Of a stretch of DNA of 64,000 nucleotides, positions 2,514 through 61,134 are shown in pieces (within the stretch, counting starts at the first letter, position 1; the number at the start of each line of letters is the position of its first letter). Source of the DNA: Desulfovibrionales bacterium (GTDB taxonomy: Bacteria > Desulfobacterota > Desulfovibrionia > Desulfovibrionales > Desulfovibrionaceae); contig JASGMV010000001.1 in assembly GCA_030156255.1 (NCBI GenBank), positions 46,935 to 110,934 of the forward strand, in the 5' to 3' direction. A program made the translations under genes and the position numbers. The notes beneath the pieces were generated by a model. The model was not told the DNA's origin. It saw nothing but the letters and a program-made list of their open reading frames with translations, and searched no databases.

Positions 2514-4196
2514 TCAGGCCACAGGCGACGAAGCCGTGGACGAAGCCGTGGTCGAAACCGGCTCGCCGGCTCCTTCCGCATCCGCCAAGCTGCGCCTGGC
2601 CTCGGCCAGCGCCTCATCCAGCTCCGTGAACAACGCTCCCGGCCCCGTCAGACGGTCCAGTCCCAGGGAAATGAGCTTGTCGCGCTGCTCCGCCGAGGAA
2701 ACCACCAGCGTCCGAATACCCGCGGCGCGGCAACGCTCGACCATGGAGCTCAAGGCGAACACCGCGGAGATATCCATGAACGGAACGTCCAGGCAATCGA
2801 CCACCGCCACCCGGGCGCCCAGCAACGCTCCGATCTTGCCCTGCATCAAGGAGGCTGTGCCAAAGAAAAACGGCCCGCGTATGGCGATGATGCGCACGCC
2901 GAAATCCGTTTCCTGTTGCAGGGCCTGCTCGGTTTCGCGGTTGTCAAGGCCTCCCGGCGCCTCTTTGATTTGAATGCGGGTCTGCCGGGTAATGCGCAAG
3001 GTGAGCAGCAGCGCGGCCATGGTCACGCCAGCGGCCACGGCCACCATGAGGTCCACCAGGACCGTGATGGCCAGCACCACGACCATGACCGCCAGATCGC
3101 TTTTGGGCGCGCTGCGCAGCAGGCGCAACAACCGGTAGTCCAGGATATCCACGCCGACCTTGACCAGGATGCCGGCCAACACGCACAGGGGAATGCCCGA
3201 AGCCAGGGGGCCAAGCCCCAGCACAAGGGCCAGCAGCACCAAAGCGTGGATGACGCCGGACAACTGCGAGGACCCGCCCGCCTTGATGTTCACCACCGTG
3301 CGCATGGTGGCGCCCGCTCCCGGCAATCCGCCGAACAGCGCCGCGACCATATTGCCGATGCCCTGTCCGATGAGCTCGCGATTGGGGTTGTGGCGGTCCC
3401 GAGTCAGGGAGTCGGCCACCAAAGAGGTCAACAGCGAGTCGATGGAGCCCAGAACGGCCAGGGCCAGGCCCAGACTCGCCAACCGACCCAACTGATGGAT
3501 GTCCACGGCCGGCAGCGACGGCGTGGGCAGGCCCGCCGGCACGGCCCCGATGGTCGCCACGTCCAGGTGGAAAGCCGAGGCGATGACGGTTCCCAGAATC
3601 AAAGCCGTCAGCGGCGACGGCGCAATGCGCGTCAGCCGGACGGGATAAAAGAACACCACGGCCAGGGTGATCGCCGAGAGCAGCACGGCGTGCAGCCCCG
3701 GACCCGAAAAAGCCCCGGAAACGGCCGCGGGCAAGGCGAGGATGGCGGCCATGGGCGAACTCGCGGCCTTGGCGCCGAGCAGCGGGCCGGTCTGGAGCAG
3801 AATGATGATCACCCCGATGCCGGTCATGAACCCGGAGATAACGGGATAGGGGATATACCGAACGACGCCGCCCAGGCGAAACAAGCCGAAAACCACCTGC
3901 AAAGCCCCGGCCAGCAGCACCGTCGCCAGAGCAAGACGGAAGTCCCCGGAGAAGCCGGCAATGGCCGAGGCGAAGACTACGGTCATGGGGCCGGTGGGCC
4001 CTGAAACCTGGGGTTTGGTTCCGCCGAACAACGAGGCGAACAGCCCCACGGCGATGGCGCCGTACAATCCGGCCGCGGGGCCCGCTCCGCTGGACACGCC
4101 GAAAGCCAACGCAAGCGGCAAAGCCACCACTCCGGCGGTGAGGCCGCCGAACACATCTCCTCGAAGACGCCCCATTCTACCACCAACCGACGCCAT
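2514..4196 (-). CDS. SulP-family anion permease with C-terminal STAS domain
   Basis: Multi-TM core ('GGLTAGVVALPLALAFG', 'SGPTGPMTVV') plus STAS tail ('VAVVDCLDVPFMDISAVFAL'). ATG 4196 is preferred over the track start 4283. Confidence 0.9.
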   Translation of the reverse strand: MASVGGRMGRLRGDVFGGLTAGVVALPLALAFGVSSGAGPAAGLYGAIAVGLFASLFGGTKPQVSGPTGPMTVVFASAIAGFSGDFRLALATVLLAGALQVVFGLFRLGGVVRYIPYPVISGFMTGIGVIIILLQTGPLLGAKAASSPMAAILALPAAVSGAFSGPGLHAVLLSAITLAVVFFYPVRLTRIAPSPLTALILGTVIASAFHLDVATIGAVPAGLPTPSLPAVDIHQLGRLASLGLALAVLGSIDSLLTSLVADSLTRDRHNPNRELIGQGIGNMVAALFGGLPGAGATMRTVVNIKAGGSSQLSGVIHALVLLALVLGLGPLASGIPLCVLAGILVKVGVDILDYRLLRLLRSAPKSDLAVMVVVLAITVLVDLMVAVAAGVTMAALLLTLRITRQTRIQIKEAPGGLDNRETEQALQQETDFGVRIIAIRGPFFFGTASLMQGKIGALLGARVAVVDCLDVPFMDISAVFALSSMVERCRAAGIRTLVVSSAEQRDKLISLGLDRLTGPGALFTELDEALAEARRSLADAEGAGEPVSTTASSTASSPVA

Positions 4197-4496: not shown

Positions 4497-5879
4497 ATGT
4501 TTTTCCAACAAATCACCGTGGAGGGCCTCGGCTGTTTTTCCTACGCCGTCGGCTGCCCCGCGATCGGTGAAATGGCTGTGGTGGATCCCAAACGCGACGT
4601 ACAGACCTACCTGGACATCTCGCGCCGCGAAGGTATGCGCATCACTCGGGTTTTCGACACCCACGTGCATGCGGACCACGTTTCCGGCGCCCAGGAACTG
4701 GCCTCCCAGACGGGAGCGGCGATCTGCATGTCGCGCCACGCGCCCGTGAGCTTCCCGTTCACCAAGCTCACGGAGGGCGACGTGATCGAATTCGGGGCCG
4801 TGCGCCTCGAAGTTCTGGAGACGCCCGGGCACACGCCAAACTCCATCTCCCTGTTGCTCACCGACCTGACGAGAGGCCAGGAGCCGTGGATGGTCCTGAC
4901 CGGCGACGTCCTCTTCGTGGGCGACATCGGACGGCCGGACCTGGTGGGCGAAGCCGTGCTGGAGGAGCAGGTCAAAAACCTGTGGGACAGCCTCTACGTC
5001 AAGCTGGCGAAACATCCGGACCACCTGGAAGTCTTCCCGGCCCACGGCATGGGCTCGTTGTGCGGCAGAGGCATGTCCGCCAAGACCAGCTCCACCCTGG
5101 GCTTCGAACGCCGGCACAACCCCATGCTGGGCTACCCGGATTTCGAATCCTTCCACAAGGCCATGACCCACGACTTCCCGGCCAGGCCCAAAAGCTTCAC
5201 CCACATCATCGAAACCAACATGGGCGGCGCCCCGCTGCTGGAGCGCTGCCCCCTGGACCGGTCCCTGTCGCCGGAGCGCTTCGCCGAGCGCATGGAGCAA
5301 GGCGCCGTGGTCATCGACGCCCGCAGCGCCGCGGCCTTCGGGGGCTTTCACATCCCCGGCGCCCTGTCCATCGGCCTGGAGAAGCAGGTGGCCAACTGGG
5401 TGGGCATGGTGGTGGATCCCTCGGCCGATTTGCTGCTGGTGGTGGAGGACGAAGCCGACTACGAAGCCATGACCACCCAGCTCCATCGCATCGGCTACGA
5501 CAACATCTACGGCTGGCTGGCCGGAGGCATCTCCTCCTGGCTTTATGCGGGCCGGCCCCTGGAGAAGCTGAACCAAATCTCGGTGCAGGAGCTCGAGAGC
5601 CTGCTCAAAAAGCCCGCGCCCCCCGTGGTGCTGGACGTACGCACGCCGGCCGAATGGAAGGCCGGGCGCATCCCCGGCGCGCAGCACTACCCGGTGACAA
5701 AAATTCTGGAGAAGGCCCCGGAGCTGAATCGCGCGGCCCCGATCTGCGTCGTCTGCGGCACGGGATACCGCTCGAACATCGCGGCCTCCGAGTTGATCCG
5801 CCAGGGGTTCGAGGACGTGTTCAGCATGGCCGGCGGGACCACGGCTTGGACCCGGGCCGGCTACGGCCTGGAGAAATGA
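4497..5879 (+). CDS. Metallo-beta-lactamase-fold hydrolase fused to two rhodanese domains (persulfide-dioxygenase-like architecture)
   Basis: 'THVHADHVSG' MBL motif. Two rhodanese modules; the second has the active-site loop 'CGTGYRS'. AAGGAGG precedes the ATG. Confidence 0.85.
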   Translation: MFFQQITVEGLGCFSYAVGCPAIGEMAVVDPKRDVQTYLDISRREGMRITRVFDTHVHADHVSGAQELASQTGAAICMSRHAPVSFPFTKLTEGDVIEFGAVRLEVLETPGHTPNSISLLLTDLTRGQEPWMVLTGDVLFVGDIGRPDLVGEAVLEEQVKNLWDSLYVKLAKHPDHLEVFPAHGMGSLCGRGMSAKTSSTLGFERRHNPMLGYPDFESFHKAMTHDFPARPKSFTHIIETNMGGAPLLERCPLDRSLSPERFAERMEQGAVVIDARSAAAFGGFHIPGALSIGLEKQVANWVGMVVDPSADLLLVVEDEADYEAMTTQLHRIGYDNIYGWLAGGISSWLYAGRPLEKLNQISVQELESLLKKPAPPVVLDVRTPAEWKAGRIPGAQHYPVTKILEKAPELNRAAPICVVCGTGYRSNIAASELIRQGFEDVFSMAGGTTAWTRAGYGLEK

Positions 5880-49259: not shown

Positions 49260-50465
49260 ATGCGAAGCAAAATATGGGAGCTCAACGAGCTGCAATGCTC
49301 CATCCTCGGAACCTGCCTGAGCATCGGCGAACTGCGCCGAATCGCCAGGAAGTCCCGACTCGACCTGCCGGAGGACGCCACGGAGTTCCATATCCATTCG
49401 CTGTTCGTGGCGGTGTGCAAGGCCAACCGCTCCGAAGCCAAGGCCGTGAACAAGGCGCTGGATCGCAAGTTTTCTTCGGCCCTGCTCAAGTTCAACACCG
49501 GCAAGAGCGAAGAAGAGCTCCGAGACCTCTGGCGACAGGCCCGGGACAACGGAGACATTCCGGGTCCCTACTGGGCGATCATGTCCAACCCCCATCTTTC
49601 CGAGCAATTTCACGCCGAGGTCTTCGGCGAGGTGCACATGCTCTCCCACTTGGTGGGATCGGCGAACCGGGAGGACATTCGCCGGTTAAGCATCCTCGAG
49701 GAAGAACTCGAACGCGTACAACGACGCTGGGCCACGGCCAAAGCCGCCTACAGAAAACGCTTCAAGCGCCTGGAGGAGGAAAACAAGGAGGCTCGGCGCC
49801 AAATCGGAATTTTGGCCAAGGAGCTCGAAACGTACAAGACCAGGGCCGCGACCCTGGCCGATCCGACCCTGCACCAGGAAAACGAGGCCCTGCTGCGTAC
49901 GTTGTCGGTGCAGTCCGCCAGCCTGACGGAAGCGTCCATGCACAACGACCGTCTTTCACAGGAGCTGGACGACACCGCCCGGAAGCTGGAGCGGCTCGGT
50001 CGGGAGGTCCTCGAAAAAGACGCCGAAACAACCTTTCTGGAAAGCGAACTGCGGCGTCTGCTGGCGTCCATAGCCCCGGATCCCTGCCCCGGCGGTTGCT
50101 CCAAAGCCGGTACGGACGCCTGCCCCGGCCCCAACCTTTGCGGCAAAAGAATTCTTTACGTCGGCGGACGCACCAACATGGTGCAGCACTACCGGGCCTT
50201 GGTGGAGCGCCACGGAGGACGGTTCGAACACCACGACGGAGGCATGGAGGAGTCCCGGCAGTCCCTGCCCAAGATTCTGGGAGGGGTAGACGCCGTGGTC
50301 TGTCCCGTCGACTGCGTCAGCCACGACGCCTGCCAACGGGTCAAGGAGGCCTGCCGCAACGGCGTCAAGCCCTTGAAACTGGTTCGCAGCTCCGGGCTGT
50401 CCAGCCTGGCGAAAATTATCGACGAACTCGCCGACGCCGCCGAGTCCGCAAGGGAGGCGTTATGA
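49260..50465 (+). CDS. Coiled-coil protein with C-terminal DUF2325 domain
   Basis: C-terminal 'ILYVGGR..HYRALVERHGG.F.HHDGG....LPKILGGVDAVVCPVDCVSHDA...VK'. Long heptad-like central region. Confidence 0.75.
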   Translation: MRSKIWELNELQCSILGTCLSIGELRRIARKSRLDLPEDATEFHIHSLFVAVCKANRSEAKAVNKALDRKFSSALLKFNTGKSEEELRDLWRQARDNGDIPGPYWAIMSNPHLSEQFHAEVFGEVHMLSHLVGSANREDIRRLSILEEELERVQRRWATAKAAYRKRFKRLEEENKEARRQIGILAKELETYKTRAATLADPTLHQENEALLRTLSVQSASLTEASMHNDRLSQELDDTARKLERLGREVLEKDAETTFLESELRRLLASIAPDPCPGGCSKAGTDACPGPNLCGKRILYVGGRTNMVQHYRALVERHGGRFEHHDGGMEESRQSLPKILGGVDAVVCPVDCVSHDACQRVKEACRNGVKPLKLVRSSGLSSLAKIIDELADAAESAREAL

Positions 50466-50839: not shown

Positions 50840-51070
50840 ATGGTCACGCCAATGAGGAGCATGAGGGTCAACCAATGCGGCAAGATCCACGAAGTCAAAG
50901 CAAAAGGGGAGCTGGGCCGCCGAATCCGCGACATGGGCCTTGTGCCGGGAACGGATCTGGTCATCGTCGGTAGAGCCCCGCTCTACGATCCCGTCGCGAT
51001 CCGCATGAGAGGCTACACGTTGACCCTTCGAAACAGTGAAGCAGATTTGATTCAGGTGGAGGTTGATTAA
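50840..51070 (+). CDS. feoA: FeoA (copy 2)
   Basis: 'G.IHEVKAKGELGRRIRDMGLVPGTDLVIVGRAPLYDPVAIRMRGYTLTLRNSEADLIQV'. GGAGG precedes the ATG. Confidence 0.9.
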   Translation: MVTPMRSMRVNQCGKIHEVKAKGELGRRIRDMGLVPGTDLVIVGRAPLYDPVAIRMRGYTLTLRNSEADLIQVEVD

Positions 51071-51073
51071 CAA

Positions 51074-53254
51074 ATGGAGAAGATTCGCGTCGCCGTCGCA
51101 GGCCAGCCCAACTGCGGGAAAAGCACCATGTTCAACGCCATCACCGGGGCGACCGCGCGCGTCGGCAACTATCCCGGCATCACGGTCGACCGGCTGGAAG
51201 GCCGTTATCGCATGGACGGATTCGACATTCAGTTGGTGGATTTGCCCGGGACCTACTCGCTCACCTCGTACTCCCTGGAGGAGGTCGTCGCCCGCGACAT
51301 GATCGTGGACGAACGCCCCGACGCCGTGCTGTGCATGATCGATGCGACGGCTCTGGAGCGGAGCCTCTACCTGGTGATCCAGCTCATGGAAATGGAAATT
51401 CCCGTGGTCATCGGCCTGAACATGATGGACGAGGCCAAGCGCAAGGGAATCCGCATCGACACGGCCAAGTTGTCCCGACTTCTGGGCGTTCCCGTGGTGG
51501 AATGCGTCGCCCGCCTCGGCGTGGGCAAAGACCTGCTCATGAAGGAAGTTGCGGCTACGGCGGCCAAACACGCCCTCAATTTCGAACCGATCAAAATCTC
51601 GTACGGCGCGGACCTCGATCCGTTCGTCGACCGGATGGTGGAGTTGATCGAGGCGGAAATTCCCAAGGGAAACCGTCCGCCCGCAAGGTGGCTGGCGACG
51701 AAGCTCCTCGAAGGCGATGAAATCATCGCCGAGAGGATGCACGCGCACGGCTCCATAGCCGACAGGCTGGAAAAAATCACCGCCGAAGCCGAAAAAGCGA
51801 TGGAGACGCGCACGGGCTCCTATCCGGAAGCCATCATCGCGGACAGGCGCTACGGTTTCATCAACGGCCTCGTGCGCCAGGACGTTCTGTTCCGCGAAAG
51901 CGACCTGCGCTTCGACTTCTCCGACAAGGTCGACAAGGTCCTCACGCACCGCATTCTGGGACCGCTCATCATGCTGGGCGTGCTGTGGACCATGTTCTAC
52001 ATCACCTTCACGCTGGGAGCCGCGCCGCAAGGCTGGGTCGAAGACGGCTTCGGCTGGCTCGCCTACCTGGGATCCACCTACATCCCCGAAGGACTGCTCC
52101 AGTCCCTGATCGTCTCCGGAATCATCGACGGCGTGGGCGCGGTGGTCAGTTTCGCTCCGCTCATTCTGATCATGTTCGTCATGCTGGTCTTCCTGGAGGA
52201 CCTCGGCTACATGGCCCGCGTCGCCTACATGGTGGACAAGGTGTTCCGCATCTTCGGGCTGCACGGCATGTCCGTGATGCCGCTGGTGATGTCCGGCGGC
52301 ATGCCCGGCGGCTGCGCGGTGCCCGGCGTCATGGCCGCCAGAACGCTGCGCAGCCCTCGCGAACGGTTGGCGACCATCCTGACCGCGCCGTTCATGGTCT
52401 GCGGCGCCAAGACCACGGCCTACATCATGCTCATCGCGGCATTCTTCCCGCAGAACGCCACGCTGGCCATGTTTCTCGTCGTGCTCACGTCCTGGTTCTT
52501 CGTGCTGGTTGTCGCCCGCATCCTGCGCTCGACGGTCATCAGGGGCGAGCATACGCCTTTCGTCATGGAGCTTCCTCCGTACCGGCTGCCCACGGTGCGA
52601 GGCGTGGCGATCCACGCCTGGGACCGGGTCTGGCAATATTTGAAGAAGGCCGGCACGGTCATTCTGGCGGTCTCCATCTTCATGTGGGCGATGATGACCT
52701 TCCCCCAGTTGCCGGAATCGGAAACCGCGGAATTCGACGCGCAGCGCGAACAAGTCGCCCAACAAGTCCAGGCGGAAAACTCCGGCATGGACGCCGCGCA
52801 AATCCAGGAGCTGATCGACCAGAGAACCCTGGCTATCGACGAGTTGGAGAGTGAAACCGCTCTCAAGAACTCCATCGCCGGGCGCGTCAGCATGGCCATC
52901 AAGCCGGTGACGGATCTCGCCGGATTCCCCTGGCAGGCCAACATCGCCTTCGTGGGCGCCTTCGCGGCCAAGGAAGTCTTCGTTTCGACCATGTCCACGG
53001 CCTATTCCATGGGCGACGTCGATCCCGAGGAATCCGCGTCCTTGAGTGAAAAAATCGGAAACGACAAAGCCTGGACGCTTCCCGTCGTCTTCAGCGTGTT
53101 CCTGTTCATGCTGATGTATACGCCGTGCATGGTTACCGTTGTGGCCATTGCGCGGGAATCCAATTGGAAATGGGCGGCTTTCTCGGTGTGGGGAATGCTG
53201 CTCTTCGCATTCGCTGTCTCCACGGTCGTTTATCAAGTGGGATCAGCGCTATAA
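51074..53254 (+). CDS. feoB: Ferrous iron transporter FeoB (copy 2)
   Basis: 'GQPNCGKST', 'NYPGITVDR', 'DLPGTYSL', 'GLNMMD', plus membrane domain. Starts 3 nt after feoA2. Confidence 0.95.
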   Translation: MEKIRVAVAGQPNCGKSTMFNAITGATARVGNYPGITVDRLEGRYRMDGFDIQLVDLPGTYSLTSYSLEEVVARDMIVDERPDAVLCMIDATALERSLYLVIQLMEMEIPVVIGLNMMDEAKRKGIRIDTAKLSRLLGVPVVECVARLGVGKDLLMKEVAATAAKHALNFEPIKISYGADLDPFVDRMVELIEAEIPKGNRPPARWLATKLLEGDEIIAERMHAHGSIADRLEKITAEAEKAMETRTGSYPEAIIADRRYGFINGLVRQDVLFRESDLRFDFSDKVDKVLTHRILGPLIMLGVLWTMFYITFTLGAAPQGWVEDGFGWLAYLGSTYIPEGLLQSLIVSGIIDGVGAVVSFAPLILIMFVMLVFLEDLGYMARVAYMVDKVFRIFGLHGMSVMPLVMSGGMPGGCAVPGVMAARTLRSPRERLATILTAPFMVCGAKTTAYIMLIAAFFPQNATLAMFLVVLTSWFFVLVVARILRSTVIRGEHTPFVMELPPYRLPTVRGVAIHAWDRVWQYLKKAGTVILAVSIFMWAMMTFPQLPESETAEFDAQREQVAQQVQAENSGMDAAQIQELIDQRTLAIDELESETALKNSIAGRVSMAIKPVTDLAGFPWQANIAFVGAFAAKEVFVSTMSTAYSMGDVDPEESASLSEKIGNDKAWTLPVVFSVFLFMLMYTPCMVTVVAIARESNWKWAAFSVWGMLLFAFAVSTVVYQVGSAL

Positions 53255-53283
53255 TCCTCTATTGCTTTAATGGAGGTGTTACG

Positions 53284-53709
53284 ATGCAGGCCGCCAAATT
53301 ACAGACAACGCCTGGCCGATCCAAAAAGTCGATGTTCGACTATCGTGAAATCAGGTCTTTCGAACTTGCGGACGACCTGGTCACCATAGCGAGCAGATTG
53401 CACAAAATCTACATCCGGATGGACGCGCACAACGTCTTGCAGAAGTTGAAACATCGGACGGTCGATCTCTCCATCAATGTGGTCGAGGCGACCTCGCTGC
53501 AAGACCATCCGGAAAAGGCGCTGCTCTTTGAGATGTCTTTCGAGTCACTCAAGGACGTTCGCTACGAATTGAGCAAAGCACGCACGCTCGGCCTCTGCAG
53601 CGAACCGGAGTTTTTCCACTCCTACAAGATCGTCAATGAATTGGAGCGGAACCTTTGTTCGCTCATAGCCTCATCCCAACGCAAAAAGCTGCTCGCAGCC
53701 CAAGGATAA
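53284..53709 (+). CDS. Divergent four-helix-bundle protein (23S rRNA-IVS-protein-like family)
   Basis: 'LKHRTVDLSINVVEATS', 'FEMSFESLKDVRYELSKARTLG' fit the family pattern I recall (sQlrRAa.SI..NIaEG / GS..El...l). GGAGG precedes ATG 53284. Confidence 0.55.
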   Translation: MQAAKLQTTPGRSKKSMFDYREIRSFELADDLVTIASRLHKIYIRMDAHNVLQKLKHRTVDLSINVVEATSLQDHPEKALLFEMSFESLKDVRYELSKARTLGLCSEPEFFHSYKIVNELERNLCSLIASSQRKKLLAAQG

Positions 53710-53723
53710 GTAACGAGCAATCG

Positions 53724-56054
53724 ATGCCGAAAAACAAAGACATCATCATCCGACACGACATCAGGGGCCGGATGCGCCTGAAGATCCGGTCCCTGAAAAA
53801 CAAAGAGGCCGCCTCGAACGTGACGGCCTCTCTGCAACGCCTCGACGGGTTGCTCTGGGTCCGGGCCAACCCGGCCTGCGCCAGCCTGGTCTTGGGCTAC
53901 AACCCGGAGGACATCCAACGGCGGGCGCTCCTGGAGCGCGTCAGCGCCGCCGTCGGGGCGCCGCCGCCGGTGCAGTCGACGGCGCCCTGCGGCGCGAAAA
54001 CCAAGGAAAAACGCCCGGTGCGGCGGGCCTTCAGGCGGTTCGCAGCCATCACGGCCGTGCTGGGCGCGGCCGTGTTCAGGTCCTCGGTCCTGGGCCTCGC
54101 CGTCGGCCAGACCCTGGCCAGCCCACTGGGAGTCGCCGGCCTGATCTTCAGCGCCCCGCTGGTCCGAAGCGGGATCAGGAAGCTCAAAAGCGGGCGCCTG
54201 AGCCTGGACGGCTTTCTGGCGGCCGGCGCCGTCGCGGCCATCACAGCCGGCGAGGCGCTGACCGCCTTTGAAATCTTGTGGATCAACTCCGGCTCCGAGC
54301 TGCTGACGGCCTGGATCGCGGAGCGCTCCCGCCGTAGCATCGCCGAAATCCTCGAAATCACGTCCCACCATACCTTCGTGCTGCAGGACGGCGTGGAGGT
54401 GGAGCGGGCCGTGAGCGAGGTGCGGCCTCAAGAGATCGTGGTGCTGCACACCGGAGAGAAAATCTCGGTGGACGGCGTGATCGTCGAAGGCGAGGCCGAG
54501 ATCAACGAGGCCCCGCTCACCGGCCGGGAGGAGCTTGTCAACCGAGGCGTCGGCGAGACGGTTTACGCCGGAACCTTCGTGTACAAAGGCGTGATCCAGG
54601 TGCGGGCCGAAAAAGTCGGCGACGCCACGTATCTGGCCCGCGTCATGCGCAAGGTTCAGGACGCCCTGGAGAATCGGGCGCCCATCGAGGGCGTGGCCGA
54701 CCAGTTGGCTCAAAGCCTGGTCCGGATCGGATTCGCTACGACGGCCGCAACCTTCCTGTTGACGGGCAGCGCCTGGCGCGCCTTCACGGTGCTGTTGGTC
54801 ATGGCCTGCCCGTGCGCCACGGTGCTCGCGGCCTCCACGGCCGTCAGCGCGGCCATCAGCGCGGCGGCCAGGCGGCGCATCCTCATCAAGGGCGGCCGCT
54901 ACCTGGAGGAAATCGGCAAATGCGACACGGTCTGTTTCGACAAGACCGGCACGCTGACCACGGCCCGCCCCATGGCGGCGCTCATCCTGCCCGAGGACGG
55001 CGTCGACGAACGGGAGCTGCTCCAATTGGCCTGCTCGGCCGAAATCCACAACCACCACCCGCTGGCCCAGGCCCTCAAGGAGGCCGCCGCGCGCCGAGGC
55101 TTGGAGCCCATCCCGCACGCCGTGTGCGTCTACTTCATGGGCATGGGCATGCGGGCGGTCATCCAGGAGCGGGAAATCCTGGTGGGCAACGACAAGCTCG
55201 CCGAAACCTTCGGCGTCGACTTCGGCGCCCGGACGCCGGAAATCCAGCGTCTCAGAAACCAAGGATATACCGTGCTCCAGGTCTACCGCGACGCGGAGCC
55301 CATAGGGCTTCTGGCCTTCGCCTCCCAGCTTCGGCCCGAGGCTGCGAACGTAATCGAACGCTTGAAGTCCATGGGCGTCAAGCGGTTCATGCTCGTCACC
55401 GGCGACGAGTACGGCTCGGCGAAACCTCTGGCGGACAAGCTCGGCATTACGGAAGTGCAGGCCTCCATCATGCCCGAAGACAAGGCCCGTTTCGTGGAAC
55501 TCGAAATGGAGCAAGGCCGCAAGGTGCTCATGGTCGGCGACGGCGTCAACGACGCCCTGGCGTTGAGCCGGGCCGACGTCGGCGCGGCCATGGGGACGAG
55601 CGGCTCCGAGGTCGCCATCGAGGCCGCGGACATCGCCTTGGTCAACGACGACCTGGAGGCGCTGGCCGACGTCTACGACCTGAGCCGGCGAACCCTGCGC
55701 GTAGTCCGGCAGAACTTCTGGATCGCCACGGGCTCCAACATCGCCGGCGCGGCCCTGGGCGCTCTCGGGCTTTTGTCCCCCGCGGCCGCCGGGCTCGTGC
55801 ACATCGGGCACACCCTGGGCGTTCTGGCCAATTCGTCCCGACTTCTCTCCTTCTCCACCACCAATTCGCCCGCCAAGGGCGCCGCCACCGGAGCGATGCA
55901 TGGACTTCCAAACACTAGCCAACCTGCGGCGCTATTTGACCGTCAAACACCACATTCCGGGCAGAATCCGCCTGAAGTTCAATCCGGCCGTGACGAAGCA
56001 CCCGGAAGTGAAAAAACTGATGAACGGCAATCACGAATTGCCTGCGGGTGTTGA
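53724..56054 (+). CDS. P1B-type heavy-metal ATPase, CPC type, with non-CxxC 'RGRMRLK' N-domain
   Basis: 'ACPCA' in TM4, 'FDKTGTLT', 'GDGVNDALAL', 'TGRE' in place of TGES, last TM 'HIGHTLGVLANSSRLL'. The N-terminus 'IIIRHDIRGRMRLKI' has no CxxC. Confidence 0.9.
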   Translation: MPKNKDIIIRHDIRGRMRLKIRSLKNKEAASNVTASLQRLDGLLWVRANPACASLVLGYNPEDIQRRALLERVSAAVGAPPPVQSTAPCGAKTKEKRPVRRAFRRFAAITAVLGAAVFRSSVLGLAVGQTLASPLGVAGLIFSAPLVRSGIRKLKSGRLSLDGFLAAGAVAAITAGEALTAFEILWINSGSELLTAWIAERSRRSIAEILEITSHHTFVLQDGVEVERAVSEVRPQEIVVLHTGEKISVDGVIVEGEAEINEAPLTGREELVNRGVGETVYAGTFVYKGVIQVRAEKVGDATYLARVMRKVQDALENRAPIEGVADQLAQSLVRIGFATTAATFLLTGSAWRAFTVLLVMACPCATVLAASTAVSAAISAAARRRILIKGGRYLEEIGKCDTVCFDKTGTLTTARPMAALILPEDGVDERELLQLACSAEIHNHHPLAQALKEAAARRGLEPIPHAVCVYFMGMGMRAVIQEREILVGNDKLAETFGVDFGARTPEIQRLRNQGYTVLQVYRDAEPIGLLAFASQLRPEAANVIERLKSMGVKRFMLVTGDEYGSAKPLADKLGITEVQASIMPEDKARFVELEMEQGRKVLMVGDGVNDALALSRADVGAAMGTSGSEVAIEAADIALVNDDLEALADVYDLSRRTLRVVRQNFWIATGSNIAGAALGALGLLSPAAAGLVHIGHTLGVLANSSRLLSFSTTNSPAKGAATGAMHGLPNTSQPAALFDRQTPHSGQNPPEVQSGRDEAPGSEKTDERQSRIACGC

Positions 56055-56217
56055 AAGCTATCGGATCAATCCCATGGCTCTCTCCCTCATTATCGAATAC
56101 GACGCCGAGCGCATCGATCCGGACCTGCTCGAAGAGCTCGCCGCGACTCGAAACGACGAACGCGCGTCCGCCATTGTCGAAGAACTTTATCAAACCCTGA
56201 TGCATCCAACCCAATAA
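55900..56217 (+). CDS. Stand-alone 'HIPGRIRLKF' HMA-like domain protein
   Basis: Shares the N-domain of both ATPases ('HHIPGRIRLKF....V..L......GV.SYRINPMALSLIIEYD'). Overlaps the ATPase-1 tail by 155 nt in another frame. Confidence 0.65.
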   Translation: MDFQTLANLRRYLTVKHHIPGRIRLKFNPAVTKHPEVKKLMNGNHELPAGVESYRINPMALSLIIEYDAERIDPDLLEELAATRNDERASAIVEELYQTLMHPTQ

Positions 56218-56229
56218 GGAGGCGATACG

Positions 56230-57180
56230 ATGAGCAGTCAGCACATGTCCATGCAACCCCAAACAGGCTCCTCCGGCTGCGGCGAAGACGCGGCCGGAGG
56301 CGGCGCCGGGCCGGCCATGCAGCCCCAACAAGGCCAGGGAGGCTTCAACGGCTCGGTCGCGCAGGGAGCGTTCATGGGACAAGGCCAAGCCCAAGGGCAG
56401 AACCCGAGCATGGGCCAGGGGCAAGCGGCCGGCCACCCCCAAGAGGCGGCCCAAGGCGCCTACATGGGGCAAGGTCAGGACGGCGCCCAAGGCCCCGACA
56501 TGGGGCAGCCCCATTTCTCCGCGCAAATTCCCGGCGCCGCGCCCTACCAGGGGCAACCCGGAGCCTTCGTCTACGGACAGCCCATGGCCGGCTACTACTC
56601 CATGGGCGAACAGCAGGCCGGCAGGCAAGCCGGCATGCAGGGATTCGGCGGCGACGCCATGGGCGCGCAAGGCGGATACGCTCCTCAGGCGGGCGCCATG
56701 GGCGGATACGCCGGCGCCTTCGCGCAAGCGCCCGGAAACGGCGGCGCTCCGGGGATGAATCCCGGGCAAGCCATGTATGGGGGCCAGGTTTTCGCCGGCC
56801 AGCAGGGCTCGGCCATGGACTACGCCCAGGCCATGGGCCGGCAATACGCCGCGAGCGCTCCGGGAGTCCAGATTCCCGGCGCATCTCCGGGATACGGACA
56901 GGAAAACCGGTACGGCGAGCTTTACGGATTGATCCAGGAAGCGGCCAACGGCAATCCTGACGTTTCCAAATTTCTTAATTTCTTCACCCAATCCAGCACG
57001 GAATTCTGGAAAGGCGCTTTGATCGGAACCGGCCTGACCCTGCTTTTGACCAACGATACGGTCAAGGGCGCCCTCTCCGGAGCCTTCGCCAGCGTGTGGG
57101 GGGCCTTTGGCAAGAGCGCCGAGGAAATGGAGGAAGAAGAAGACCGTAAAGCCGAGCAGCGCCTCGCCAACAAGGAGTAA
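56230..57180 (+). CDS. Gly/Gln/Met/Ala-rich low-complexity protein with C-terminal membrane-anchor domain
   Basis: AAGGAGG precedes the ATG. About 235 aa of '(F/Y)MGQGQ'-type repeats, then 'FWKGALIGTGLTLLLTNDTVKGALSGAFASVWGAF' and an acidic tail. Confidence 0.7.
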   Translation: MSSQHMSMQPQTGSSGCGEDAAGGGAGPAMQPQQGQGGFNGSVAQGAFMGQGQAQGQNPSMGQGQAAGHPQEAAQGAYMGQGQDGAQGPDMGQPHFSAQIPGAAPYQGQPGAFVYGQPMAGYYSMGEQQAGRQAGMQGFGGDAMGAQGGYAPQAGAMGGYAGAFAQAPGNGGAPGMNPGQAMYGGQVFAGQQGSAMDYAQAMGRQYAASAPGVQIPGASPGYGQENRYGELYGLIQEAANGNPDVSKFLNFFTQSSTEFWKGALIGTGLTLLLTNDTVKGALSGAFASVWGAFGKSAEEMEEEEDRKAEQRLANKE

Positions 57181-57183
57181 AAC

Positions 57184-57594
57184 ATGAGCATCGTCAGACA
57201 GACCAGCATCGCGCCCCGGGCCTCCCTGGCCATGGGAGCGGCAGGGGCCATCGTAGGCGGCGCCGTGGCCGCGGCCCGAGATATCGACAAAGTCAAAAAA
57301 GGCGACATGACCCGCGAAGAGGCGGTCAAGGACGTACTGAAGGAATCCGGAACCACGGGACTGGCGACAGCCGCGGCGACGGCGGTGGTCAGCTCCCTGG
57401 GCCTTACCGGCGTTCTGTCATTGGCCGGCCTCGTGGCTGTGGCCGTGGGAACCAAACGCCTGGCGGACAAGGCGTTGGCGAAGTGTGAAACGAAACGCCT
57501 GGCCGAAGGCGAATCGGAGGCCAGCGAACCCCTGAAATCCGCGCCGGCCAAAAAATCCACAACCAAAAAAGACGGCGCAGCGGCCAAGGCCTAG
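57184..57594 (+). CDS. MamC-like two-TM Gly/Ala-rich membrane protein
   Basis: 'GAIVGGAVAAARDIDKVKKGDMTREEAVKDVLKESGTTGLATAAATAV' resembles '[47 protein letters not shown]' of MamC as I recall it. Confidence 0.6.
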   Translation: MSIVRQTSIAPRASLAMGAAGAIVGGAVAAARDIDKVKKGDMTREEAVKDVLKESGTTGLATAAATAVVSSLGLTGVLSLAGLVAVAVGTKRLADKALAKCETKRLAEGESEASEPLKSAPAKKSTTKKDGAAAKA

Positions 57595-57614: not shown

Positions 57615-57944
57615 ATGAGCCAAGACACCAAGACCCCGGCGCTTCCGCCCGCGGACTACAACTACCAGTACAACTACGACCCGAGCTACGCCCAGTCCCA
57701 GGCCGCGGCCTATCCCTACTACAACCAGCCGTCCGCGGTGAAGAGCTGGTTCGACTTCAGCAACGCGAACTACGCCAAGGGCTTCGTCATCGGCGCCGGC
57801 GTGGCCCTGGTCCTGGCCAACCCGGCCGTGCAAAAGGCCATCGTCTCCGGAGCCGTCAAGCTCTGGTCCGGCGTCCAGGGCGGCGTGGAAGAGGTCAAAG
57901 AACGCATTCACGACATCAAAGCCGAAATGAGCTCCAAGGAGTAG
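57615..57944 (+). CDS. Tyr/Asn/Gln-rich N-terminus + membrane-anchor domain, paralogue of 56230..57180
   Basis: 'YAKGFVIGAGVALVLANPAVQKAIVSGAVKLWSGV' aligns with the C-domain of the upstream protein. GAGGAG precedes the ATG. Confidence 0.65.
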   Translation: MSQDTKTPALPPADYNYQYNYDPSYAQSQAAAYPYYNQPSAVKSWFDFSNANYAKGFVIGAGVALVLANPAVQKAIVSGAVKLWSGVQGGVEEVKERIHDIKAEMSSKE

Positions 57945-58034: not shown

Positions 58035-58286
58035 ATGAGTTCAACGAAAAAACGTACGGGCCAGACCGGTAGTCCGTCCAAATCCGGGACTTCCGGCCTG
58101 AGTACGGCGCAATCCCGGGCTCTGGCCAAGGCCGGCATGACCGCAAGCCTCGGCGTGCTGATCTGGACCGGATTCGATCAAAGCCGCGGCGCCCGCAGGC
58201 TGCACCGGCTGGCGGGCGTTTCCCTGGTCGGTTTCAGCGTCTGGCACCATATGCTCTACCCCAAAAAATCCGGAAATTCCTCATGA
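58035..58286 (+). CDS. Small two-TM membrane protein with His pair, coupled to the downstream ATPase
   Basis: AGGAG lies 7 nt before the ATG. 'MTASLGVLIWTGF' and 'LAGVSLVGFSVWHHMLY' are hydrophobic segments. The stop overlaps the ATPase start (ATGA). Confidence 0.55.
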   Translation: MSSTKKRTGQTGSPSKSGTSGLSTAQSRALAKAGMTASLGVLIWTGFDQSRGARRLHRLAGVSLVGFSVWHHMLYPKKSGNSS

Positions 58287-60409
58287 CCCGACGGCCCCCT
58301 ACCAACGGCTTGCGAATCATCCACCAGATTCCCGGGCGGGTGCGCCTGCACGGGGCGCGGCTCAGGGACCCCAATCTGGACATCGATTATCTGAGAGCCC
58401 TTCTGGAAGCCATGCCCGGCGTGCATTCCGTCCGGATCAACCAGGCGGCCGGAAGCGTGGTCATCCGACACGACAACGCAACCCATTGCGTGGACGACTT
58501 CATGCTGGCCCTTTCCCGGCTTCCGAAGGACGCCTATCTGCCCAATACGGAGGCGGACACCGGGCCGGACTTGCTGGAAGTCGCGGCCCACGCCGGAGCC
58601 GCCGCCCTGACGCCGTTTCTCCCCATGCCGATCCAAGCGGCGATGAGTTGGTTCCTCGCCGCGCCGTCCCTGGTCAAGGGGGCGGAGACCCTGCTCGCAC
58701 GGGGATTGAAAATCGAGGTGCTGGACGGAACGGTCAAGCTCCTGGCCCTGCTGCGCCAGGACTACTTCACCACCAACACCGTGGGCGCCCTGCTGGTTCT
58801 CGGCGAATACGTGGAGCGCTCTGCCGAGCGAAAAACCAACGATCTGCTCAAGAACCTGCTCCAGCCCCAGGTGGAGACCGTCAAGGTCGAGCGGGACGGC
58901 GTGGAGCGAATCATTCCCTTCGACCAGGCGCTCATCGGCGACGCGGTCCTGGTCGGCCCCGGGGAGCTCATCCCCGTGGACGGCGTGGTCGCGGAGGGGG
59001 AAGCGTCGGTCAACACCAGCTCGGTCACGGGGGAATCCGCCCCGGTCCACGCCAAACCGGGCGACAAGGCGATCTCCGGCTCCGTAGTGGAGGACGGCAA
59101 GATCAAGATCACGGCCGAGTCGGTCGGGGCGGAAACCAGCATGGCCCGCATTTCCGGATTCCTGGAAAAGTCCCTGCGCACGAAGTCCACGCATCAGAAA
59201 CGCACGGAAGAGCTGGCCGACAAGCTGGTCCCGCTGACCTTCGGCGCGGGACTCGGGCTGTACGCGCTCACCGGAGATTTGCGCCGCGCCGCCTCGGTGC
59301 TGACGGTGGACTACTCCTGCGCCATCAAGCTGAGCTATCCCGTGGCCGTCCGCTCGGCCATGTACGCGGCCGGCCGCGAGGGCGTCCTGATCAAGGGCGC
59401 CGCCAGCCTGGAGCGCCTGGCTTCGGTGGACGCGTTCGTCTTCGACAAGACCGGCACCCTTACCCACGGGGAATTGCAGGTCACGGACGTAGTCTCCCTG
59501 TCCGCATTCGAAGAAAACGAAATATTGGCCCTCGCGGCCGGAGCGGAGGCCCACTACGGCCATCCCGTGGCCGCGGCCGTGGTTTCGCGGGCCAGGGCCC
59601 TGGGCCTCAAATTCCCGGACATGAGCAACGTGGACTTCATCGTGGCCCACGGCGTGTCCGCCTACGTGGACGGCGCCCGCGTCCTGGTGGGCAGCCGCCA
59701 CTTCATCCACGACGACGAAGCCGTGGACTGCTCCCGCGCCGATACGGCGGCCAGCCGGCTTCGGGATCAGGGCAAGTCCCTGCTCTACGTAGCCAGAGAC
59801 GGAGAACTGGCGGGGCTCATCGCCATGCGCGACGACCTGCGCCTTGAAGCGGCCGAAAGCCTGCAGGCGCTCAAGGACATGGGCGTGGTGAAACTCGTCG
59901 TCCTTACCGGCGACCACGAAAGAACCGCCCAGGCCGTCTGCTCGCAGCTGCCGATGCTCGACGAAGTGCACGCGGAGCTCAAGCCCGAAGACAAGGCCGC
60001 CGTGGTGGAGAAACTCAAGGCCGAGGGGCGCCGGATCGCCTTTGTGGGCGACGGCGTCAACGACGCCCCGTCGCTTTTGGCCGCGGACGTGGGCGTATGC
60101 ATGCCCTCGGGCGCGGACCTCGCCCGGGACGCGGCCCAGGTCGTGCTCATCAAGGACGACATCCGCGGGCTGGCCCTGGCCTTGGGCGTCGCCCAGCGAA
60201 CCATTCAAACCCTGCAGCGGTGCGTGTGGAGTTCGGTGGGCGTCAACAGCGCCGTCATGGCTCTGGCCGGCGCCGGCCTGCTGCCCACGGCGCTTTCCGC
60301 AGCCGCCCACAACGGCTCAACCCTCGGCATTCTCGCCTACGCCGCCCTGCGCGGCGTCAACACCCCAGCCACAGAGGACATTCGCCCCCCCAGGAGTTTT
60401 CCATGTTGA
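58283..60409 (+). CDS. fezB: P1B-6-like heavy-metal ATPase (FezB-like), 'SCA' TM4 motif
   Basis: 'DYSCAIKLS' TM4 motif, 'SVTGES', 'FDKTGTLT', 'GDGVNDAPSL', last TM 'AAHNGSTLG'. N-domain 'IIHQIPGRVRLHG' without CxxC. Subclass and symbol rest on my recollection of the SCA signature. Confidence 0.85.
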   Translation: MTRRPPTNGLRIIHQIPGRVRLHGARLRDPNLDIDYLRALLEAMPGVHSVRINQAAGSVVIRHDNATHCVDDFMLALSRLPKDAYLPNTEADTGPDLLEVAAHAGAAALTPFLPMPIQAAMSWFLAAPSLVKGAETLLARGLKIEVLDGTVKLLALLRQDYFTTNTVGALLVLGEYVERSAERKTNDLLKNLLQPQVETVKVERDGVERIIPFDQALIGDAVLVGPGELIPVDGVVAEGEASVNTSSVTGESAPVHAKPGDKAISGSVVEDGKIKITAESVGAETSMARISGFLEKSLRTKSTHQKRTEELADKLVPLTFGAGLGLYALTGDLRRAASVLTVDYSCAIKLSYPVAVRSAMYAAGREGVLIKGAASLERLASVDAFVFDKTGTLTHGELQVTDVVSLSAFEENEILALAAGAEAHYGHPVAAAVVSRARALGLKFPDMSNVDFIVAHGVSAYVDGARVLVGSRHFIHDDEAVDCSRADTAASRLRDQGKSLLYVARDGELAGLIAMRDDLRLEAAESLQALKDMGVVKLVVLTGDHERTAQAVCSQLPMLDEVHAELKPEDKAAVVEKLKAEGRRIAFVGDGVNDAPSLLAADVGVCMPSGADLARDAAQVVLIKDDIRGLALALGVAQRTIQTLQRCVWSSVGVNSAVMALAGAGLLPTALSAAAHNGSTLGILAYAALRGVNTPATEDIRPPRSFPC

Positions 60410-61134
60410 GCAGCATCGACAAAGCGCCCGTGAACACCCCTCTCGTCATCGCCGAGATCGTTCATCAGGATCTGGCCGACAGGCTCGGGCGGTTGGACGT
60501 ACAGCCCGGCGACGAAGTCATGCGTATGGATGAAGAGGCGCTTTTCGGGCCGGTGCGCGTCCGCGGCCCCATGGGCGAAGTCATCCTGGCCGCGGGCATG
60601 GCCGCCAAAATCATCGCCCACCACGACGACGGGCACAAGACTCCGGTGCTGGAAATGAACCCCGGAGAGCAAGGCCACGTCGAGGGGTTGATCTGCGGCT
60701 CCGCCCTGGAGCAGGGCCTCGCCGTGCTGGGCATCCGCGAAAACGACAACCTGACCATGGTGCGCCGCATCCCGCCCATGGAGTACCAAGTGGTGGTGGA
60801 CGGCAAACGCGTCCACCTCTCCGAAGGCGCCGCGGCCAAGGTTTGGGTCAAGATGGGCGAGACCTTCACCCAACTGGCCTCGGCCGGCGCCGGGAGGCCC
60901 TTGCGCGTAGAGCTTCTGCTCGGAGGCAAACGGGCCTACGCCCATCTCGAATCTCTGGGCGTGGCGCCCGGAAAGACCGTGGTCGTGGAGCGGGTGGACC
61001 CGGCCCAGAGGGTGGGCCGCGAAGGCGTGGACCAAGTGGTCCTGGGCGCCGCCTCGGGCCTGCGGGTCTACCTCCGCCCCGACCAGGCCCAGAAAATTCT
61101 GGTGCGGGTGAAGGACGACAAAACGCGCGCCTGA
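60403..61134 (+). CDS. Protein made of three tandem FeoA-like domains
   Basis: Three ~75-aa units, each with the 'G....V..L...........L..LG(I/V).(P/E).G/N...V' FeoA pattern. CAGGAG precedes ATG 60403. 7-nt overlap with the ATPase. Confidence 0.8.
   Translation: MLSSIDKAPVNTPLVIAEIVHQDLADRLGRLDVQPGDEVMRMDEEALFGPVRVRGPMGEVILAAGMAAKIIAHHDDGHKTPVLEMNPGEQGHVEGLICGSALEQGLAVLGIRENDNLTMVRRIPPMEYQVVVDGKRVHLSEGAAAKVWVKMGETFTQLASAGAGRPLRVELLLGGKRAYAHLESLGVAPGKTVVVERVDPAQRVGREGVDQVVLGAASGLRVYLRPDQAQKILVRVKDDKTRA

Follow-up and report, generated by a model that had tools for sequence, protein, structure and literature searches.

Why should two P-type ATPases and a small soluble protein encoded between them carry the same arginine-rich segment, and what could such a segment do? 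This question is raised by a gene cluster of a Desulfovibrionales bacterium (Desulfovibrionaceae; assembly GCA_030156255.1), which lies in a stretch of 64,000 nucleotides of contig JASGMV010000001.1 (positions 46,935 to 110,934 of the forward strand). This whole stretch is referred to as the window; coordinates are given in its numbering, and all of its genes described below are on the + strand. A preliminary description of the window, made from its letters and open reading frames (ORFs), had pointed out a shared domain of ~65 residues at the N-terminus of ATPase-1 (53724..56054), at the N-terminus of ATPase-2 (58283..60409) and as a free-standing protein (55900..56217). By profile and sequence comparison, the three segments are identified as one homologous domain, Pfam HMA_2, which is equivalent to CoBaHMA and forms a Cys-free branch of the heavy metal associated (HMA) superfamily, and the locus is assigned to the ferrosome (iron-storage organelle; fez) gene clusters. 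The identity of the domain and of the cluster is held to be close to certain. The explanation as a whole, in which the CoBaHMA domains of a fez cluster act through a basic patch, is held with modest confidence, a little above even.

All three copies score above the gathering threshold (30 bits) of Pfam HMA_2 ('Heavy metal associated domain 2', PF19991). The free-standing protein of 105 residues is matched with 43.2 bits (E 5e-11) over residues 8-79, which form its domain core (nucleotides 55921-56136). The N-terminal domain of ATPase-1 (53736..53942) is matched with 37.0 bits (E 4e-9) over residues 5-73, and that of ATPase-2 (58310..58480) with 32.7 bits (E 8.8e-8) over residues 10-66. The segments also find one another in pairwise BLASTP comparisons, with 31% identity over 72 residues (E 3e-7), 36% over 56 residues (E 8e-7) and 30% over 60 residues (E 7e-5). 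When alignments of orthologues were compared by hhalign, the class of the free protein matched the ATPase-2 class with a probability of 98.1% and the ATPase-1 class with 98.9%. A six-frame search of the organism's own assembly (3.84 Mb, 106 contigs, 99% complete) recovered exactly three HMA_2 copies, scoring 41, 39.4 and 35.1 bits, all of which are located in this cluster. The shared domain and the ORF at 55900..56217 are thus as first described. A chance resemblance of short basic motifs, with no true shared domain behind it, might be suspected from pairwise identities of only 30-36% over 56-72 residues. It is rejected as extremely improbable because every copy exceeds a curated Pfam cut-off, the hhalign probabilities are 98-99%, the domain is conserved in the orthologues of all three classes, and the only three copies of the genome are found within a single cluster.

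The conserved residues were determined from an alignment of 58 domain sequences, composed of the three window copies and of orthologues of the free, ATPase-1 and ATPase-2 types taken from 20 loci. Two arginines forming an RxR motif on β1 (R19 and R21) are invariant in 58/58 sequences, and a His upstream (H14) and an Asn downstream (N53) of this motif are conserved in at least 90%. Within the ATPase-2 class, an Arg in strand β2 is also at least 90% conserved. The residues common to the three classes are His, Arg, Arg and Arg/Asn, and no acidic or thiol ligand is kept across the classes. The fused domains are basic: the net charge of residues 1-60 is +8 in ATPase-1, and that of residues 1-66 is +5 in ATPase-2 (class means of +7.4 and +2.9, respectively). 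As had been noted earlier, none of the three domains contains CxxC; the free protein has no Cys, and each ATPase N-terminal domain has one. None of the three proteins gave a match to the canonical HMA family (PF00403) at E <= 0.01, and the GMxCxxC loop is absent from them. The HMA-like pattern proposed in the preliminary description is borne out by the 58-sequence profile, which matches canonical HMA domains among PDB sequences (CopA, ATP7B, HMA4, ZntA and CopZ) with E-values of 3e-14 to 1e-3 and the domains of B. subtilis CopA with per-domain E-values of 7e-5 and 3e-4. This match spans only profile positions ~34-80 (α1-β2-β3-α2), and the strand bearing RxR lies outside of it.

Models of the free protein and of the ATPase-2 N-terminal domain were predicted with AlphaFold2 (AF2). 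The model of the free protein (predicted local distance difference test, pLDDT, 74.8; predicted template modelling score, pTM, 0.60) consists of a helix, β13-19, β22-27, a helix, β51-57, β62-67 and two further helices, and that of the ATPase-2 domain (pLDDT 84.9, pTM 0.73) consists of β11-16, β19-23, a helix, β47-53, β58-63 and a helix. Both contain a β0-β1 hairpin, α1, a β2-β3 hairpin and α2, in the order β-β-α-β-β-α. The additional strand β0, predicted before the PG turn (residues 13-19 of the free protein and 11-16 of ATPase-2), carries the conserved His, and the 'IPG' of the shared motif forms the turn of the β0-β1 hairpin. This predicted order departs from the plain ferredoxin-like βαββαβ arrangement that had been expected: β0 is additional, a β4 is not predicted with confidence, and a Foldseek search gave no match at E <= 1e-3. 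The Foldseek matches of the free-protein model are mainly to RNA-polymerase subunit L/Rpo11, with a template modelling score of ~0.3. Those of the ATPase-2 domain form a weak list (E 0.02-0.3) composed mostly of HMA domains (E 0.05-0.3), KipI-type domains and Rpo11. The N-terminal domain of KipI/YbgJ (PDB 2KWA, 5DUD and 2PHC), which served as the template for β0 in Benzerara et al. (PMC8890360), is among the best of these weak matches (E 0.06-0.19), but it has no sequence similarity to the window domains and belongs to unrelated biology. The relationship to HMA is regarded as established by the sequence profile, with only loose support from the fold search.

According to a preprint, the Pfam HMA_2 profile corresponds to CoBaHMA, the 'Conserved Basic residues HMA' domain. 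CoBaHMA is characterized by a strand β0 with a conserved His, by a charged patch made up of conserved basic residues in β1 and β2, and by the absence of metal-binding Cys (Benzerara et al. 2022, PMC8890360). The window copies resemble it in passing the HMA_2 cut-off, in their β0 His, RxR and HMA-like core, in lacking CxxC, and in occurring both as a single-domain protein and as N-terminal modules of membrane proteins. They differ from CoBaHMA as defined on cyanobacterial calcyanins in their context, which is an iron organelle and a Desulfovibrionaceae genome. They also differ from the published domain in that the models have no confident β4 and that the free protein is extended by a helix at its N-terminus and by an acidic, helical tail.

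The ORF of the free-standing protein begins with an ATG at 55900 that is preceded, at a distance of 6 nucleotides, by GGAG (55890-55893). Nine homologues with 45-81% identity were found in other genomes and metagenomes, one of which is named 'HMA2 domain-containing protein' by NCBI. Because residues 1-13 (MDFxTLAxLRRYL) are kept in all nine, the ATG at 55900 is the likely start. It is probably a better start than that of the database version of the protein (93 residues, 99% identity over 89% of the ORF), which would fit a TTG at 55936 and probably begins too late. The domain core is preceded by an N-terminal helix and followed by an acidic, helical C-terminal tail, and no transmembrane (TM) segment was found in the protein (maximum KD19 0.87). 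The core has a charge of +4 and the tail of -6, with means of +3.6 and -3.0 across 20 orthologues. In the tail, the motif LLEEL is almost invariant throughout the class, which also keeps H17 (nearly invariant), H18 (in 7 of the 9 homologues covering it), E66-Y67-D68 and E78/E79. The position of the gene between both pumps is kept in at least 13 loci. On the basis of its size, solubility, RxR motif and cluster position, the protein is assigned to the soluble R-rich class of Fez proteins ('FezD-type'), and it can be likened to FezD of S. putrefaciens by class description. The ORF of ATPase-1 stops at 56054 and overlaps the free ORF, which is in the +1 frame relative to it, by 155 nucleotides. 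A frameshift or fusion signal was considered for this overlap and rejected, since the overlap ranges from none to 197 nucleotides in related loci and the ATPase tails are not conserved; it looks like an ordinary gene overlap.

In the available part of the preprint of Grant et al. (bioRxiv 10.1101/2020.01.10.902569), FezB is described as a P1B-6 ATPase with the motifs D[Y/F]SCA and HNxxT and an N-terminal RxR, and an 'R-rich motif' is reported for FezB and FezH as well as for soluble and membrane Fez proteins. ATPase-2 contains DYSCA in TM4 (residue 345) and HNGST in TM6 (residue 676), together with TGES, DKTGT and GDGVNDAP, and is identified by these P1B-6 and P-type core motifs as FezB. ATPase-1 (Pfam E1-E2_ATPase and Hydrolase; NCBIfam TIGR01525) contains RGRMRLK at its N-terminus, ACPCA in TM4, HIGHT in TM6 and DKTGT. 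It is classified as a FezH-like P1B pump (CPC) from its N-terminal R-rich motif, its cluster position and its TM motifs, which are unlike those of FezB. As in the fez clusters of Grant et al., so far as these are described in the available text, genes for soluble R-rich, GxxxG, 2-TM and FeoA-domain proteins are present and feoAB adjoin them, here in a conserved order. The same text describes a short motif and gives an HMA annotation only for FezC, whereas three full HMA_2 domains are found here. The FezC-type fusion of HMA_2 with a 2-TM protein, reported there for other fez clusters, is absent from this one, and the 2-TM protein of the window has no such domain. In the literature, the presence of FezB in ferrosome membranes and its necessity for ferrosome formation have been demonstrated only in D. 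magneticus, S. putrefaciens, R. palustris and C. difficile.

The 20 loci containing relatives of the free protein are mostly from Desulfovibrionaceae (Desulfovibrio and Maridesulfovibrio); the others are from Desulfonatronum, Desulfocapsaceae, a few Alphaproteobacteria and Plasticicumulans. In the Desulfovibrionaceae loci, the order ATPase-1, free protein, three GxxxG proteins, 2-TM protein, ATPase-2 and FeoA-repeat protein recurs. All 16 loci that extend to the ATPase-2 position encode a pump whose TM4 contains D[YF][SA]C[AT] and whose TM6 contains HNxxT. The link between the domain and such pumps was also surveyed in 61 related genomes of the same family or order. A FezB-like pump was defined by a score of at least 386 bits against ATPase-2, which is separated by a clear gap from the ordinary P1B pumps (321 bits or less). 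HMA_2 was detected in 28 of the 61 genomes and a FezB-like pump in 24; every genome with such a pump was HMA_2-positive (24/24), and none of the 33 HMA_2-negative genomes had one (table 24/0/4/33, Fisher p = 3e-13). The motif, for which a survey of co-occurrence with SCA-type ATPases had been suggested, is closely linked to these P1B-6 pumps. The survey gave 72 HMA_2 matches, 34 of them in open frames of at least 650 residues. Among the 38 matches in short frames, 23 lie within 8 kb of a frame of at least 650 residues, and 7 further ones adjoin a FezB-like pump whose own N-terminal domain scored below the threshold.

The domain is not confined to P1B-6 pumps. A profile search of 1.84 billion representative proteins gave 8,841 matches at E <= 1e-3, the weak tail of which probably includes some canonical HMA proteins. 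When 10 top-scoring representatives were scanned against Pfam, 7 were P1B or P2 pumps or fragments of them, and all 10 contained two HMA_2 stretches. The highest-scoring representatives (P0011-P0159) carry two or three HMA_2 domains in tandem, and the full-length ATPases P0053 and P0145 have 1057 and 1085 residues, respectively. In one relative (G037), HMA_2 heads a P2-type ATPase (Cation_ATPase_N/C) of 1,032 residues (L035:275-3373, - strand), as it also does in G054:C12 and G058:C94. The P2 pump of L035 is flanked by a protein of 180 residues (3370-3912, - strand), which covers almost all of the HMA_2 model (model positions 10-152), and a free HMA_2 protein of 128 residues (4909-5295, + strand). 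The grouping of a CoBaHMA pump with small CoBaHMA proteins is therefore seen again for pumps that are neither of the P1B-6 type nor part of ferrosomes. CoBaHMA is also fused in calcyanin and in DUF454 proteins. The motif is thus not ubiquitous in unrelated contexts without a P1B connection; the domain is strongly, but not exclusively, linked to P-type pumps.

Because the fused copies are the N-termini of P-type ATPases, they would be placed on the cytoplasmic face, outside of the ferrosome membrane. FezB, a P1B-6 pump, presumably fills the organelle with Fe(II). In the proposed mechanism, the domains would not bind the transported metal; instead, the basic face of the sheet would dock on an anionic partner. 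A basic-patch interaction module is favoured because the conserved Arg/His stripe is unsuited to Fe(II) and suited to an anionic surface. Candidate partners are the head groups of acidic phospholipids and/or an acidic protein surface, such as the LLEEL helices of the free protein. Such docking would co-localise and/or regulate both pumps. The free protein, with its basic core and acidic tail, would be a trans-acting adaptor or regulator of the pump-borne copies and not a metal-carrying chaperone. In the literature, a regulatory role has been hypothesized for CoBaHMA, with anionic lipids as possible ligands. A targeting or assembly function, which had been raised in the preliminary description, agrees with the conserved His, Arg, Arg and Arg/Asn and with these published hypotheses. 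The docking mechanism itself is put forward tentatively, at slightly less than even confidence.

Several points weigh against this proposal. The literature consulted offers no experimental evidence of a function for the domain. The free class keeps HH, E-Y-D and LLEEL, residues that could in principle ligate Fe(II), and small HMA_2 proteins with no P-type ATPase nearby occur in relatives (L037 and L039), so the domain is not exclusively pump-linked. A confident β4 of the ferredoxin fold is missing from both AF2 models and neither model has a PDB match by Foldseek at E <= 1e-3 (best 0.02), so the fold assignment rests on sequence profiles. We infer both the electrostatic pairing of the acidic tail with the basic patch and the location of His, Arg and Arg on one face of the sheet, the latter from strand alternation and the published CoBaHMA model.

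The combination of a soluble and fused copies of one HMA-superfamily domain has the architecture of a chaperone with the metal-binding domains of its pump. The window proteins share their superfamily with the pairs of CopZ/Atx1 and CopA/ATP7B, and also the layout, in which one copy is soluble and others head a pump. The free protein and the pumps might accordingly form a Cys-free Fe(II) metallochaperone/acceptor pair, in which the soluble protein binds Fe(II) through His/Glu/Asp and hands it to the N-terminal domains. The conservation of H17, H18, E66-Y67-D68 and E78/E79 in the free class would suit this, as would a cluster concerned with Fe(II) (feoAB and a P1B-6 pump), and the soluble FezD is termed 'chaperone-like' in the available part of Grant et al. 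However, the HH, EYD and EE residues are not common to the fused copies, in which only the His/Arg/Arg/Arg-Asn set is shared, and arginines repel cations. Canonical HMA domains, too, typically have an 'x-Y-D' on β3, which is structural there, and the CxxC-bearing loop of HMA aligns with nothing in the profile match. Unlike the CopZ/Atx1 pairs, the window proteins have no CxxC and no conserved metal ligand; they have an extra β0, and a stripe of arginines replaces the metal loop. The function of the domain, judged from these residues, is probably not metal transfer, and a chaperone/acceptor pair is considered improbable. The same His/Arg cluster is typical of phosphate-binding sites, and the iron of ferrosomes is reported in the literature to be a vivianite-like Fe(II) phosphate, which would be compatible with a phosphate- or polyphosphate-binding module coupling anion supply to Fe(II) pumping. 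The domain, however, would be cytoplasmic and the mineral lumenal. Calcyanin, from calcium-carbonate systems, and P2-type pumps also bear this domain, although neither involves a phosphate mineral, and no phosphate transporter was found in the cluster by Pfam and NCBIfam scans. This role is regarded as very unlikely.

A further possibility is that the fused CoBaHMA docks on the A or N domain of its own pump and gates turnover, with the free copy competing with it or mimicking it in trans and with membrane or assembly roles being secondary. The N-terminal position on P-type ATPases is the same as that of the regulatory metal-binding domains of CopA and ATP7B. The presence of the domain on both P1B and P2 pumps, in many cases as tandem copies and in many with a small free copy as neighbour, suggests a pump-generic role, and the domain is called 'regulatory' in the literature. 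Against this, it also heads membrane proteins that are not pumps and have no A or N domain, namely calcyanin, DUF454 proteins and, in the available description, the FezC-type 2-TM proteins. Autoregulation overlaps with docking through the basic patch and is not exclusive of it; as the primary function it is rated rather unlikely. A wider reading sets the cluster beside the calcyanin system. Calcyanin is composed of a CoBaHMA domain fused to three glycine-zipper (GlyZip) motifs and occurs in cyanobacterial calcium-carbonate inclusions, whereas in the ferrosome cluster CoBaHMA is carried by the pumps and the free protein, and the GxxxG proteins are encoded by separate genes. CoBaHMA together with glycine-zipper (GxxxG/GlyZip) membrane proteins could constitute a toolkit common to these two mineral organelles, which are otherwise unrelated. 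The domain would then be a general module for recognising or shaping organelle membranes, and the free copy would join the FezH-like and FezB pumps in a single complex. This wider idea is speculative and doubtful.

The actuator loop of ATPase-1 (EAEINEAPLTGREELV) reads TGR where TGE(S/A) is canonical. All 15 FezH-like sequences examined (the window protein and L016-L030) read [TN]GRx[ED] at this loop, and the FezB-like pumps all keep TGE, or SGE in one case. The Glu of the actuator TGE loop drives the dephosphorylation of E2P in P-type ATPases. In the FezH clade, the catalytic Glu has been lost or displaced as a conserved trait, which suggests an unusual turnover. This feature is not mentioned in the available part of the 2020 preprint of Grant et al. 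The FezH-like pumps of two Desulfocapsaceae (L028:7119-9425 and L030:7078-9399) end in a Cys-rich tail (e.g., ...CRGCLLGCKCGNANCNRKCKTC), and the tail of the window ATPase-1 ends in ...RIACGC. Such C-terminal Cys tails of FezH-like pumps, which vary between lineages, may be metal-binding.

Other genes of the cluster were identified on both sides of the free CoBaHMA gene. Upstream of ATPase-1, the genes feoA (50840-51070) and feoB (51074-53254), which were recognised as ORFs with FeoA and FeoB homologues in related loci, are followed by a small four-helix-bundle-like ORF (53278-53709). Just upstream of feoAB, a coiled-coil protein of 401 residues with a C-terminal DUF2325 (97 bits) is encoded at 49260-50465. 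In Desulfonatronum thiodismutans, too, the fez-like genes have a DUF2325 protein in their vicinity (L004:13319-13597). Three genes for GxxxG membrane proteins stand between the free CoBaHMA gene and ATPase-2. The first (56230-57180) is an ORF in conserved synteny. The second (57184-57594) encodes a protein of 136 residues with a weak match to NF038051 ('magnetosome protein MamC') over positions 11-94 of 97 (E 1.2e-13, 51 bits), which is below the cut-off of 100. The third (57615-57944), an ORF supported by an orthologue alignment, encodes a protein of 109 residues which, like its orthologues, has a strongly conserved C-terminal segment (...NPxVQKAxxSGxVKxW...QGGVEExKExxxDxKAE). Its similarity to DUF5132 and YtxH stays below threshold (E 0.05-1). 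Near ccyA of Microcystis, the DUF5132 family has been reported as a neighbour of a CoBaHMA protein. A link of the 109-residue protein to this family was rejected, since only 5 of 12 orthologues match it, with E-values of 0.08-1 that are below any threshold. The two-TM protein of 83 residues (58035-58286) is conserved in related loci, and its stop overlaps the start of ATPase-2. The suggestion that it is the membrane half of a split FezC was unsupported, as it gave no Pfam hit at E <= 5. The cluster is closed by a FeoA-repeat protein (60400..61134; Pfam FeoA 70.6 bits in two stretches), which also follows ATPase-2 in related loci.

The shared domain had been presented as an open discovery, and in this respect the preliminary description was overtaken, because the pattern is covered by Pfam PF19991/CoBaHMA and by the 'R-rich motif' already published for Fez proteins. 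The finding is already known: the family is in Pfam, and a publication of 2020 places it on FezB and FezH as well as on soluble Fez proteins, as the available part of that source indicates. Insofar as the motif is described there, sequence comparison identifies the ferrosome 'R-rich motif', Pfam HMA_2 and CoBaHMA as the same thing. No paper naming both 'CoBaHMA' and 'ferrosome' was found in the literature search, which did not include the key 2024 CoBaHMA paper (Gaschignard et al., Proteins 92:776). The ferrosome and CoBaHMA literatures may therefore not yet be joined. The fez work of Grant et al. reportedly appeared in Nature in 2022.

Ferrosomes are a recently recognised iron-storage organelle that is also present in gut pathogens. 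From the available descriptions, an arginine-rich N-terminal module is the one feature that soluble Fez proteins have in common with FezB, FezH and FezC-type proteins, which makes it an obvious handle on how these proteins find each other and on how the compartment is built and loaded. To this, the present analysis adds that the domain is confined to the fez cluster in this genome, that its presence tracks FezB-like pumps within one order, and that both mineral-organelle systems pair CoBaHMA with glycine-zipper membrane proteins. Taken together, these additions make the RxR and His residues of the domain a clean, testable target.

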